NCBI GenBank assembly: GCA_023920165.1
Contig: CP089278.1
Coordinates: forward strand, 2,914,001-2,978,000
Reading direction: 5' to 3'
DNA length: 64,000 nt
DNA from: Curvularia clavata
Taxonomy: Eukaryota
Shown here: piece by piece, positions 11,841-64,000 of the stretch
How positions within the stretch are numbered: position 1 is the stretch's first letter
How the letters are laid out: each line of letters begins with the position of its first letter
Translations under genes and position numbers: made by a program
The notes under the pieces: generated by a model
The model's input: only the letters and a program-made list of their open reading frames with translations
What the model was told of the DNA's origin: nothing
Database searches by the model: none

Positions 11841-12031
11841 AGCTCGCTCTTTGCCTCAATGGCTTTGATCTGATGTAGTATCTGTTCTTCCGCAGGGTAA
11901 CACCTCGGATTTATTCCACATATGTTACTCCTATTTTTGAACTCCCGCTCCCCGCAGTCACGGTGTACTTGCTATATCTGGCGCATGGGGAGCAATGTGC
12001 CCGTCCTACTGCACTTCCTGGATGCGTGCGC
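11841..12031 (+). ncRNA. U2: U2 spliceosomal snRNA, divergent variant
   Basis: CTCTTTGCC..TGGCT..GATC..TGTAGTATCTGTTCTT core, with branch-recognition GTAGTA at 11875-11880. Stem IIa with loop GTAACA and its complement TGTTAC (11923-11928); Sm site ATTTTTG (11933-11939); stem III GCTCCCC/GGGGAGC; stem-loop IV with 13-nt loop TACTGCACTTCCT. Ends are approximate. Confidence 0.9.
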
Positions 12032-12242
12032 GAAAACTCTTTTTCATTGATGCTGGTGGTGCTCTGGTGCCGCTGGGTTGAGGAAGAAGGAATAAGGGAC
12101 AAAGAAGATGGGCGCCTAAGGGACAGCGGAGAGGAGTGAAAAAAGTGAATAGTACGCGATTGAAATATGCCCGAAAAATCCAAGGTACACTCATAGCCAC
12201 CATGGTTAATCATCCTGTCTCAGCCGGATACATGCAAAACCG

Positions 12243-34700: not shown

Positions 34701-35795
34701 TGACACCGCTGCCGAACGACCTGACTCCACGGAGCGACTTCTCTATGTTGCCGCCTTTGCCGCTTCAGAATACGCCTCTACAATCGGGCGTGTTGCTAAG
34801 CCTTTCAATCCACTACTTGCTGAAACGTTTGAATACGCCAGACCAGACAAGGGCTACCGGTTCTTCATTGAACAGGTCAGCCATCATCCGCCCATTGGCG
34901 CGGCTTTTGCCGAGTCCAAGAAGTGGGATTACTATGTGAGTACCAGAAAACATGTATTGTAGTATCATCTAATAGCATACAGGGCGAGTCTGCAGTGAAG
35001 TCCAAATTTTACGGCAAGTCCTTCGACATTAATCCACTCGGTACCTGGTTCCTGCGATTGCGGCCCACTGCAACCGGAGGAAAGGAGGAGTTGTACACTT
35101 GGAAAAAGGTTACCTCTTCAGTCATCGGTATCATTACTGGAAACCCTGTTGTTGACAACTACGGTCTCATGGAAATCACCAACTGGACAACTGGTGAGAA
35201 ATGTATGCTTGACTTCAAACCTCGTGGCTGGAAGGCTTCTTCTGCATACCAGGTTGTTGGAAAGGTCATGGATGCCGAAAACAGAGTGCGCTGGAGCATT
35301 GGCGGACGATGGAACGACAAGATCTACGCCAGGTTCACCCCCGGCTTCGAGGATGCAGACATTGACAAGGGCGGCAAGACTTCAAAACACGATGACAACA
35401 AGGCTTTCCTGGTCTGGCAATGCCACGAGCGTCCGACTGGCATTCCGTTCAACCTTACTCCATTTGTCGTGACCCTCAATGCCATTCCGGATAAGCTGCG
35501 CCCGATTGTGGCACCCACAGACACCCGACTCCGGCCTGATCAGCGCGCCATGGAAGACGGTGAATACGACTTTGCCGCCACAGAAAAGAACCGCGTAGAA
35601 GAGAAGCAGCGCGCGACAAGGCGACAGCGAGAGGCAAATGGAGTAGAGTTCCGTCCCAGGTGGTTCACAAAGGGCAGATGCGAGATCACAGGCGAGGAGT
35701 ACTGGGTATTCAACCATGAATACTGGAAGATCAGGGATCGCGTTGCCAAGGGCGAAACTTCGTGGGCTGAGGCTGGCTTGGAGGATATCTTTTAG
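31784..35795 (+). CDS. Oxysterol-binding protein OSH1/OSH2 type (ankyrin, PH, FFAT, ORD)
   Basis: Ankyrin [11 protein letters not shown] domain [18 protein letters not shown] motif EEFFDA, ORD fingerprint EQVSHHPP. Introns 31792-31887, 33480-33526, 34534-34581 and 34936-34982. Confidence 0.93.
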
Positions 35796-35924
35796 ACTAA
35801 TGGTACACGCCTGTTGCTTAGTAATACATCCATTGTGAGGGTTTGGCGCTAGTGGTAATACAGCAAACAACATTCACCTTCACCTTCACCTTTCGCTTGG
35901 CAAAAAAAAAGAGCAAAAAAGAGC

Positions 35925-36109
35925 AAAAATCAAGCCCTATGCCCTTCTACTGCCCGACGCCCGCCTTCCGAATCGAACCAAGGTTCTTACGGTCGACGGC
36001 TGCGCCCCCCTAGCTTGCAGCCCTAATGCTATTTTGTTAGTGTTGGAAGGTGATACTTCTCTGGTGCTAGGCGGCCCACCCGATCAGGCTATAGGATTAA
36101 TCGCTTGAT
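35925..36109 (-). ncRNA. Candidate structured RNA polymerase III transcript of unknown class
   Basis: 5' ATCAAGC pairs with 3' GCTTGAT, which runs directly into T5, followed by T6 and T9. A-box-like TAGCCTGATCGG at 36091-36080; B box GGTTCGATTCG at 35979-35969. Several internal helices. No tRNA cloverleaf found. Confidence 0.6.
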
Positions 36110-36324
36110 GGTGAGACACAGGATGTTGCGGTCAGTCAGTCCCGGTGAATGATGAGTCCTGTCACGACACCCGCTTTCACAACGACGTCACATCGTGGAT
36201 CAACAACATGCACAAACTTGTCCCACTATCTTCGTCGCTACAAAGATAGCTCTGCGATTGTAAGTTCTACTTGTCACTCATAGATATGAGATATCCAAGG
36301 CACTACACCACCACCACCTGCACA

Positions 36325-38162
36325 TCAAAGATTTCTCACTGGAATGTTTCTCTCCAGATATCCAAACCACCTCGGCAGCGACCTCCCCGACTCAAACCCG
36401 CCACTTGACTGACTACTTCTCTGCGCATCCTCAATCGCGCTCGCCCACTTCAGCAACTCCGCCTCACTCCACGCGGTCCCCATCAGCGCAAGCCCAAACG
36501 GCATACCCGTACTCTCATGCACGCCCGCTGGCAGCGTCACCATCGGATATCCAGCCTGCGCCGCGATCTGAGGTGCCTGTGCTACATCTGGTGGAACAAG
36601 GAGGGCATCGAGTCGACGCCCGTTATTCGCCAGTGCGGCGTCGATGCCGTCTTCGCGCGTGCTTCGCTGTATAAAACCCAAAGCTTGATAGTATGTTTCG
36701 TCCATTACTCCCTTGGTTTCTAGCGACGCTAGAAACCCGTCTTGGCCAGAGTAAAAAGCAGGATGTCCGCGTGGCCAGGGATATCCGCCCTCAGTGCCGT
36801 CGTTGGCATAGTTATACGCGACCATGTCTTCAAGGGAGCGGATGCTAGTGTTTTCAAGCGACGAGAGATAGGTGCGGATGTTGTTGTAGAAGTCAGTTTT
36901 GACGACTGTGTATTCGGATTCGTTAGGGCGACCCCGCGTGCTGCCATAGTCCCAGTCCCAGCCAGAGGGGGAGACGATAGTGGAGTAGTTGGGTATCTCG
37001 GTGTTGTTGAGGATAGTGGCACCGAACGATTGCAGGAGGGAGAGCAGAGAGAGGAGGTGGCTGCGTTGAGAGGCATCGGTATAGGTCCAGAAGGTAGACC
37101 AGGGTATGCCGAAGGTTGCGTTGCGTAGTGCATCCTTGTTGGTAAGGAAGGGCATGTAGCCTTGGGGAGGAGTTTTGCCTTGCTGAGCGAGCGTGTAGTT
37201 GTCGCGTTCGTCAATGCCGTAGATGGCGTCGAGGACATATGCGGCATCGCGTACCGTCCGACCAAATGTACCGACAGTGTCTTGATGGATGCTCTCCGGG
37301 ATAACGCCCGCTCGTGATGTGAGCCCTACCGTAGGTTTTATGCCGACTAAAGCATTTCGCTCAGCTGGGTTGATCACACTGCCATCTGTCTCAGTGCCTG
37401 TACATTGTCAGAACTCTAGATACAAACGATACATTGTGAATCTGGCTTACCTAAAGAGAATGTAACAATGTTCGCAGCTACCCCCACTGCACTTCCCGAA
37501 CTGCTTCCCCCTGGATTGACAGTAAGATTGTAAGGGCTCCTCGCCTGTCCACCTCTTGCCGAGTAGCCCTCTGAATAGTTGTTTGATCGCATATCGGCCC
37601 ATTCGGAGAGCGTCGCTTTGCCCATCAGAAGTGCTCCTGCTTCCCGCAATTTTGCAACAACGTGCGCATCGCGGGGAACTATACTTCCCACGAGCATCCA
37701 GCTGCCAGCTGTAGTTTCCATTCGATCTTTTGTTGCAATGTTATCTTTGACAATATACGGAATCCCATGAAGCGGGCCTCGCACACGTCCGACCATACGC
37801 TCCGCATCAAGCGCCATAGCGATCCTTTCGGCATCTGGGTTCAGTTCCATGATTGATCTGATGTATTCATCCACTTGATAAATTCGATCCAGGTAGCATT
37901 TGAGGAGCTTCACGGAAGTGAGGGTGCCATCACCCAGGTACCCTTGGAGTTGGTCCATAGTGGCCTCTTCGAGCGTGACCCCATGACATGTGGGCATGGG
38001 AAATAGTGCAGTTGTCTCGGCGGCATCTTGCGATGGGAAGAAGAATGGATAAGGCTGCTGCAGCGGATTGACGTCCAGGACGCATGTGGAGTTCTCAACG
38101 TCGTCGCACGATGAGCTTAGTGTCACACTAAGGGCGAAGACGAATAACAGCGTTGTAAGCAT
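36325..38162 (-). CDS. Secreted amidase-signature family protein
   Basis: Signal peptide; GPLHGIPYIVKDN, GGSSSGSA and LG|TETDGSV (intron 37398-37450) supply the Lys-Ser-Ser triad. Confidence 0.93.
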
Positions 38163-63401: not shown

Positions 63402-64000
63402 ATGGTCAAGACCTCCGTCCTCAACGATGCGCTTAACGCTATCAACAACGCCGAGAAGGCCGGCAAGCGCCAGGTCCTGATCCGTCCTTCCTCCAAGGTC
63501 ATTGTCAAGTTCCTCCGCGTCATGCAGAAGCACGGTACGTCAAATTTTTTTTCATTCGCAGACGACTCGATTTTCGGCGCCGAACGACGTTGTGGTCACG
63601 CAAGTGTACCTCCATCCGAATCCGCATCCACAACCCATTCCCTGCACCCTTTTCGGGCTGATAACTAGTTAATGATCTCGATTCCCACGATCATTGACCT
63701 TTAAGTGTCCGATATATTGACTGCGGAGGACTTACACGTCTTCGGAACCGTTTCATGACGTCTGATGTTTATTTCGCCGCAACATACACTGACAATTTTG
63801 TTCAGGCTACATTGGCGAGTTCGAGGAGGTCGACGACCACCGCAACGGCAAGATTGTCATCCAGCTCATCGGCCGTATCAACAAGACCGGTGTCATCTCT
63901 CCCCGCTACAACGTCCAGCTCCGCGACATGGAGAAGTGGGTCGTCAAGCTGCTTCCCTCTCGTCAGTTCGGTTTCATCGTCCTGACCACCTCCGCTGGTA
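63402..64000 (+). CDS. RPS22: 40S ribosomal protein S22 (uS8), 3'-truncated by the window edge
   Basis: [53 protein letters not shown]; intron 63535-63805. Confidence 0.98.
63653..63787 (+). ncRNA. snR44: Intronic H/ACA snoRNA, snR44-like
   Basis: Two hairpins with ACA at 63782-63784. The hairpin 1 pocket GATAACT / TTTAA is complementary to 18S ...UUAAA-UC-AGUUAUC. Yeast snR44 is likewise hosted in an RPS22B intron. The H box is imperfect. Confidence 0.85.

Follow-up and report, generated by a model that had tools for sequence, protein, structure and literature searches.

A conserved non-coding element between convergent OSH and amidase genes of Curvularia clavata as a candidate RNA polymerase III small-RNA gene

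We analysed a 64,000-nucleotide stretch of the Curvularia clavata genome (assembly GCA_023920165.1, contig CP089278.1, positions 2,914,001 to 2,978,000; hereafter the window), in which a short element lies on the minus strand between the 3′ ends of an OSH gene and an amidase gene. Judged from its sequence, this is a real conserved non-coding element. Our best reading of it, held tentatively and falling somewhat short of probable, is a candidate single-copy RNA polymerase III (Pol III) small-RNA gene of ~180–185 nt. The element belongs to no described family among those that could be tested, and what is new here is one relative that holds the same element and, as the comparison of the two sequences indicates, conserves it in a non-coding manner. 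Which polymerase transcribes it, where it starts and stops, how it folds and what it might do are inferred, in the case of Pol III from motifs only. Throughout, an RNA position p on the minus strand corresponds to window coordinate 36110 − p, so that coordinate 36109 is RNA position 1. The candidate and its promoter-like and terminator-like signals are as follows:

35925..36109, minus strand: candidate RNA body, RNA 1–185, ending in the first T run; both ends are taken from motifs, and length and start are assumed
36110/36109, minus strand: start-like CA step, a reading of the sequence, with the A as RNA 1
36091–36080, minus strand: A-box-like word TAGCCTGATCGG, +19 to +30, inside conserved block 2
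35979–35969, minus strand: B box GGTTCGATTCG, +131 to +141, inside conserved block 1
35929–35902, minus strand: T5-GCTC-T6-GCTC-T9, terminator-like for Pol III (T5 35929–35925, T6 35920–35915, T9 35910–35902)

The start-like step, the A-box-like word, the B box and the T tract had all been claimed in the original prediction, and all are present where it put them. The order of the two boxes also stood, and the distance between them, given there as ~100 nt, had to be corrected to 112 nt. GGTTCGATTCG fits the B box consensus GGTTCGANNCC at 10 of 11 positions. The word GGTTCGANNC has a single occurrence on both strands of the window (128 kb), which is the candidate's B box, against ~2 such sites expected per window from base composition by our own arithmetic. 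Three runs of at least five T residues follow the B box; among random positions, three such runs were found after 0.04% and one run after 4.7%. A run of at least five T residues soon after the RNA body, the terminator sought for a type-2 Pol III gene, is thereby present, and the combination of a B box with this T tract exceeds chance. Both the B box and the G·U pairs of the fold described below suit the minus strand only.

The conservation of the element came to light when the 89-codon frame that is open across it on the plus strand was used as a probe of ORFs (open reading frames) called on public contigs. A single protein was returned, P0002, with an E value of 1.3e-21; it has 66 amino acids and derives from a 971-nt Logan contig. 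In an ungapped alignment with the window frame, 47 of 62 residues agree, and the agreement is distributed in blocks:

35839..36108, plus strand: 89-codon stop-to-stop frame without ATG, judged non-coding, spanning the candidate
35941..36027, no strand assigned: conserved block 1, RNA 83–169, 27 of 29 codons identical in P0002
36046..36093, no strand assigned: conserved block 2, RNA 17–64, 16 of 16 codons identical in P0002
36028..36045, no strand assigned: variable patch, RNA 65–82, which holds ACTAAC...AAAATAG, 0 of 6 residues identical in P0002

The two conserved blocks together retain 43 of 45 codons. They take in the A-box-like word, the B box (whose codons, P-N-R-T, are identical in P0002) and both strands of the helices 21–27/152–158 and 39–44/96–101, the latter being the same on both strands at the amino-acid level. 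Two single changes in the relative are certain, A117>G and U153>C, which makes 2 detectable changes in 135 core bases; the first converts an A-U pair into G·U in the TCGACC/GGTTCGA helix of the original prediction. The variable patch behaves otherwise, as small frame-shifting indels fit P0002 there far better than a codon-by-codon alignment does. On the 3′ flank, residues 3–8 of P0002 (KKSKNQ) equal window bases 35916–35933 in another frame and are followed by ~8 extra bases; an alternative alignment of this flank, with 7 mismatches and a 2-base gap, was less economical. Because the patch and the 3′ flank both need frame-shifting differences, the two fungi share the DNA but not the reading frame. 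The few changes in the core, set against heavy change in the patch and flank, argue for constraint, as seen in one relative. An RNA whose stems are constrained and whose linker is free would be expected to show such an uneven block pattern. From the same alignment, UUGAU and the first T run are probably conserved in the relative as well.

Further searches added no second relative. The 90%-identity collection yielded no further one, whether of similar or of shorter length, and a HMMER search of 1.84 billion representatives gave three hits, namely P0002 itself and two bacterial repeat proteins that match by chance over 18–19 residues. A search with the C-terminus of OSH returned 69 hits, none of them from a 971-nt Logan contig, so the P0002 contig was not tied to OSH. 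In metagenome contigs, a 21-base core word hit three loci, all chance matches of 21–25 bases; by eye, one of them (L002) has no likeness beyond the matched bases, and another (L003) has a tRNA-His (tRNA, transfer RNA) ~2.7 kb from the match. A 23-base word found 0 matches in prokaryotic genome contigs and viral contigs, and the OSH protein had 97 pattern matches in prokaryotic genome contigs, of which 0 were confirmed.

We then considered whether the element would fold as an RNA. The helices that bear on this question are listed here with their ensemble pair probabilities:

36103..36109 with 35929..35935, minus strand: terminal helix ATCAAGC/GCTTGAT, RNA 1–7/175–181, pair probability 0.94; its 3′ strand ends in a U that is also the opening T of T5
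RNA 15–19/170–174, minus strand: helix CCTAT/ATAGG, pair probability 0.13
36083..36089 with 35952..35958, minus strand: helix GCCUGAU/GUCGGGC, RNA 21–27/152–158, pair probability 0.81, with two G·U pairs that form on the minus strand only
36009..36071, minus strand: helix CCUAGC/GCUAGG, RNA 39–44/96–101, pair probability 0.90; it encloses the variable patch

The last of these was absent from the original list of helices. Every helix on that list is complementary (Watson–Crick or G·U), including the four inner ones, CCGCCT/AGGCGG, CCTTCC/GGAAGG, GGCTGC/GCAGCC and TCGACC/GGTTCGA, all of which exist in the sequence. The ensemble favours only 1–7/175–181 and 21–27/152–158 among them; CCTAT/ATAGG found little favour, and the four inner helices reached pair probabilities of at most 0.03. 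The duplex between the first 30 nt and the last 36 nt has an energy of −22.1 kcal/mol, compared with −16.2 (standard deviation, sd, 3.0) for dinucleotide shuffles, and it was equalled by 3.5% of 1000 shuffles and by 2.6% of 2000 equally spaced segment pairs of the window. The pairing of the ends is modestly above chance, and the end-closing helix stops exactly at T5.

The original prediction had stated that the element fits no tRNA, 5S, U6, signal recognition particle (SRP), RNase P or RNase MRP signature and had expected neither an Rfam nor a tRNA-finder match, and both statements held up. At gathering thresholds, Rfam 15 (4227 families) found in the whole window only a U2 small nuclear RNA (snRNA) and the small nucleolar RNA (snoRNA) snR44, both away from the candidate. 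With E values up to 10 admitted, the region 35700–36400 gave no tRNA, 5S, U6, U6atac, SRP, RNase P, RNase MRP, Y, vault or snoRNA match; two chance matches appeared, the bacterial ctRNA_p42d (E 0.05, over the candidate's stem and T run) and RMST_2 (E 8.5). ARAGORN at its default threshold, with or without introns, found 0 tRNA genes in the window. When its threshold was lowered to 90% (-ps90), a poor 'tRNA-Cys' was drawn over 35958–36089, with an acceptor-like helix, a D stem of 2–3 bp, a CCUAG/CUAGG stem with the loop CUGCAAG, a long extra arm, and a T arm that surrounds the B box on a mismatched stem; this drawing also requires an insert of 46 nt in a non-canonical position. At most, this relaxed cloverleaf points to descent from a tRNA. 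No description of a fungal Pol III RNA of the candidate's kind was found in the open-access literature.

Other RNA classes were compared with the element by eye and dropped, each being also without Rfam support. For U4 and U5, the invariant loop of U5 is not present; for U6 and U6atac, ACAGAGA is not intact and the AGC context is missing. Box C/D and H/ACA snoRNAs were set aside for want of a C box and of an ACA at the 3′ end, and the TPP (thiamine pyrophosphate) riboswitch since its words stand in the wrong order. The SRP Alu domain, the conserved regions of RNase P and RNase MRP, and a telomerase template were likewise discarded. T5 as an Sm site (GAUUUUUGC) is compatible with the sequence, yet no snRNA model matches.

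If the element is a Pol III gene, TFIIIC would bind the tRNA-type B box at +131 together with the degenerate A box at +19, and TFIIIB and Pol III would thereby be positioned to initiate near 36109. Pol III would then terminate in T5, right behind the terminal helix, with T6 and T9 as back-up stops. By analogy with other Pol III RNAs, the product, its ends closed by the 7-bp helix and carrying a 3′ oligo-U tail, would offer a La-binding end. Between its ends, a variable linker that tolerates indels would connect two conserved halves. The element looks descended from a tRNA without being one, in view of its B-box hairpin, its 7-bp acceptor-like helix and its 5-bp anticodon-like stem.

Several observations weigh against this model. 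The A box is loose: TAGCCTGATCGG fails the strict pattern T[AG]GC..A...?GG and can be matched to the A box TRGCNNAGTGG, at +19, only with an additional base, and a loose A-box pattern has 29 matches within the window. We sought a type-2 A box ~10–20 nt past the start and 30–60 nt ahead of the B box, and the 112 nt that separate the two boxes here compare with the usual 30–40 bp of type-2 promoters (PMC7279448). By eye, no TATA-like word stands upstream of 36109. On the plus strand, the T tract equally forms the A-rich terminal part of the OSH 3′ region, and one oligo-dT RNA contig of a relative's OSH ends, with a loose end, at ~35900 at an A run; because of this contig end, the A/T tract is probably also the OSH poly(A) region. 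As a whole, the molecule folds no better than its shuffles (minimum free energy −58.6 versus −56.05, sd 3.85; z −0.66; 53 of 200 shuffles equal), and the low pair probabilities of the four inner helices count on the same side. The conservation argument has its own limits. It rests on one relative, which is known only as a translated ORF, so that one third of its bases, the third codon positions, are hidden, and which may be close to the window's fungus. U153>C breaks the pair A26–U153 unless A26 is G in the relative, and A26 is a silent third codon position, hidden in P0002. Finally, no transcript of the candidate and no evidence of a polymerase on it was seen. Taken together, the idea of a possibly undescribed fungal type-2 Pol III RNA, as originally put forward, drew support from the layout, the lack of a family match and the conservation, and drew none from the whole fold, from a strict A box or from most of the inner helices.

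Within the 64-kb window there is no second copy of the candidate, and at least 20 sequencing runs contain its locus. In the mixed DNA run X20, an identical contig covers 35835–36294 at a depth of 4.6. The summed contig depth of this run is 4.6 over 36052–36286 and 7.3, 14.9 and 10.4 over 36005–36051, 35958–36004 and 35911–35957, respectively. A further X20 contig, at least 85% alike over the B-box region, differs by two small indels, an extra T behind 35972 and a deleted base at 35987, and one of the extra contigs that are at least 85% alike over the 3′ half has a depth of 4.35. These contigs show that X20 holds look-alike sequence across the half with the B box, which could stem from relatives or be paralogous; for the gene reading this is a weak hint. 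Metatranscriptome contigs (X21, X22 and X23) lie on OSH only, at 35300–35878, with none over 35911–36333, and are uninformative on expression of the candidate. Among them are oligo-dT contigs of OSH relatives in X22, which differ from the window at 36 and 68 letters and cover the end of the OSH coding sequence at 35300–35900.

Four other explanations of these data were weighed. A Pol II transcript could contain the element as a conserved cis-acting sequence, in an amidase 3′ untranslated region (UTR) of ~400 nt with its poly(A) site at the U-rich tract or as a shared terminator of the convergent pair, the B box then being a chance word. The setting suits this explanation, as the flanking stop codons are those of convergent genes, with 530 bp from one to the other, and the element's T/A tract is one of 12 clusters in the window with at least 20 T per 35 nt; the end of the relative's OSH contig at the A run and the unremarkable fold score also agree with it, and conserved 3′ UTR structures of 85–170 nt are known in Pezizomycotina (PMC8216456). 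We nevertheless regard it as unlikely, given that chance would seldom place a triple T tract after a B box and that the end-closing helix stops exactly at T5. By our own reckoning, a 400-nt 3′ UTR is also long for a 530-bp spacer that has to hold the OSH 3′ end too, and X20 has no extra contigs over 36052–36286, the would-be proximal UTR, a weak point. No more and no less unlikely, in our judgement, is a tRNA-derived relic or a copy of a short dispersed repeat, resembling a short interspersed nuclear element (SINE) or a miniature inverted-repeat transposable element (MITE), which would have kept its TFIIIC site and perhaps some Pol III transcription without any RNA function. The relaxed ARAGORN cloverleaf over 35958–36089 would be accounted for in this way, as would ends that form a 7-bp inverted repeat, and the extra X20 contigs could be its paralogues, one of them having nearly the depth of the identical contig (4.35 vs 4.6). 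A repeat is harder to reconcile with the lack of a second copy in 64 kb and with a single ORF relative among ~15 billion proteins, though at least 20 runs contain the locus. Read on the promoter strand, the element is rich in T and not in A at its 3′ end; by eye there is no target-site duplication, the flanks ...CTCACC and TTTTGC... being unlike; the relative is conserved in blocks and shows no even decay; and ARAGORN at its default threshold gives nothing.

That nothing functional is present, and that we are looking at a close relative with indel-prone low-complexity patches and at a coincidence of motifs picked after the fact, seems to us quite improbable. It would sit well with a strict B box count of one where ~2 are expected, with the fold z of −0.66, with end pairing whose p is only ~0.03 and was chosen post hoc, and with a P0002 relative that may be close overall. 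Neutral drift acting evenly, on the other hand, could hardly produce 2 changes per 135 core bases next to 0 of 6 identical patch residues and ~8 inserted flank bases, and a triple T tract follows only 0.04% of random positions. A small protein-coding exon on the plus strand, at 35839–36108, is very improbable. In favour of an exon are the 89 codons without a stop, the ORF called on this frame in the relative, and a codon-usage score of 0.126, which falls among the values of true coding chunks (mean 0.177, sd 0.096), but 12–22% of stop-free non-coding chunks match that score. The frame has no ATG and no Pfam match; the N-terminal part of P0002 falls in a different window frame, and the middle patch needs frame shifts. 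Annotated proteomes hold no relative of the frame, two of the three HMMER hits being chance, and its ESM recognition value of 1721 is below 2300, the level that 91% of known-family proteins reach, with no hit.

The candidate small-RNA gene sits in the 530 bp that separate the stop codons of two convergent genes. Its placement between OSH and the amidase, as first proposed, is borne out by the flanking ORFs:

stop at 35795, plus strand: OSH gene, an ORF with ankyrin, PH and oxysterol-binding domains
stop at 36325, minus strand: amidase gene, an ORF

The nearest ESM cluster of the amidase fragment is eukaryotic, with Ascomycota the commonest group, and the named matches in the search with the OSH C-terminus are the ascomycetes Friedmanniomyces and Ikaeria. 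The amidase is spread over two minus-strand ORFs, 37416–38162 and 36325–37377, which match positions 2–148 and 158–285 of Pfam Amidase; the segment between them, 37378–37415 on the minus strand, probably holds a short intron. A 7-bp inverted repeat, CTATCTT ... AAGATAG, was noted in the amidase 3′ region (36226–36249, minus strand), ~80–100 nt past the stop codon. Within the OSH 3′ region, a threefold tandem repeat of GGTGAA (35873–35890, minus strand) adjoins the T9 run on its far side. Elsewhere in the window, the U2 snRNA gene lies at 11841–12039 on the plus strand and matches its Rfam model over the full length with 61.5 bits (gathering score 46). The H/ACA snoRNA snR44 match is at 63651–63787, also on the plus strand, with 47.3 bits (gathering score 33), its 137 nt corresponding to model positions 1–211.

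A bolder form of the Pol III reading can be put forward. In the linker, at 36028–36056 on the minus strand (RNA 54–82), splice-like words follow a CAGAGAA word: GUAUCA, CACUAAC and, 8 nt later, UAG. As far as the amino acids of the relative tell, ACUAAY and UAG seem to be retained there, whereas the spacer differs. The segment, at 28 nt, is short for a fungal intron, and the words may be a coincidence. On these grounds one could imagine an undescribed family of single-copy, tRNA-descended Pol III RNAs of ~185 nt in an ascomycete lineage, with two conserved structured halves, a terminal helix and a free linker with splice-like words, maybe a spliceosomal-type mini-intron; we consider this rather unlikely as a whole.

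In published work, the nearest candidate to come up was 'Intergenic structure 2', which Gao, Jones and Rivas described in 2021 (PMC8216456) as a structured RNA of Pezizomycotina that stands alone between genes and whose function is unknown. Its mean length is 144 nt, it is mostly single copy (223 sequences in 207 genomes), it has no H box, and it occurs in varying genomic contexts; Pol III is unmentioned in that paper. Going by its description, our element may or may not be a member; should Rfam 15 include the family, the empty Rfam result at E values up to 10 would count against membership. Pol III-transcribed microRNA-like RNA (milRNA) loci of Neurospora crassa indicate that Pol III of filamentous fungi makes more than the textbook RNAs (PMC3547838). 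For the candidate they are a Pol III precedent; no search for a miRNA-precursor hairpin was made in the candidate.

If the candidate is a true gene, a filamentous or black-yeast-like ascomycete would have an extra conserved Pol III RNA, its cellular work unknown, and also a short native unit of promoter and terminator, such as those that serve to express guide RNAs in fungi. If it is a repeat or a UTR structure, its value would be smaller, and it would join the cases in which a T tract behind a B box does not suffice to identify a gene. In fungi other than the two model yeasts, the Pol III transcriptome is treated as tRNAs, 5S, U6, SRP RNA and RNase P RNA. Fungal U6 snRNA genes can carry mRNA-type introns. 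Like an intron-bearing fungal U6, the candidate would be a Pol III gene with a B box, and its splice-like segment follows CAGAGAA and varies in the relative; unlike U6, it has no match to the U6 model at E values up to 10, its ACAGAGA is not intact, its intron-like segment is only 28 nt long, and its B box lies outside that segment. Fungal SINEs, such as AfuSINE, MgSINE, Foxy and nrs1, have a tRNA-type promoter head in a short non-coding element. The candidate resembles them in having a putative head of this type and in being a short non-coding fungal element, and differs from them in that it lacks an A-rich tail and flanking duplications and occurs just once in the window. The tRNA-descended type-2 Pol III small RNAs include vault RNA, rodent BC1 and 4.5SI, and viral tRNA-like units. 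Compared with tRNAs and these type-2 RNAs, the candidate, which is known from sequence alone, yields no cloverleaf at the default threshold, has no Rfam match and exceeds the usual spacing of A and B boxes; like them, it has an internal near-consensus B box, an A-box-like word near its start, a helix between its two ends that is soon followed by a T-run stop, and a length below 200 nt.

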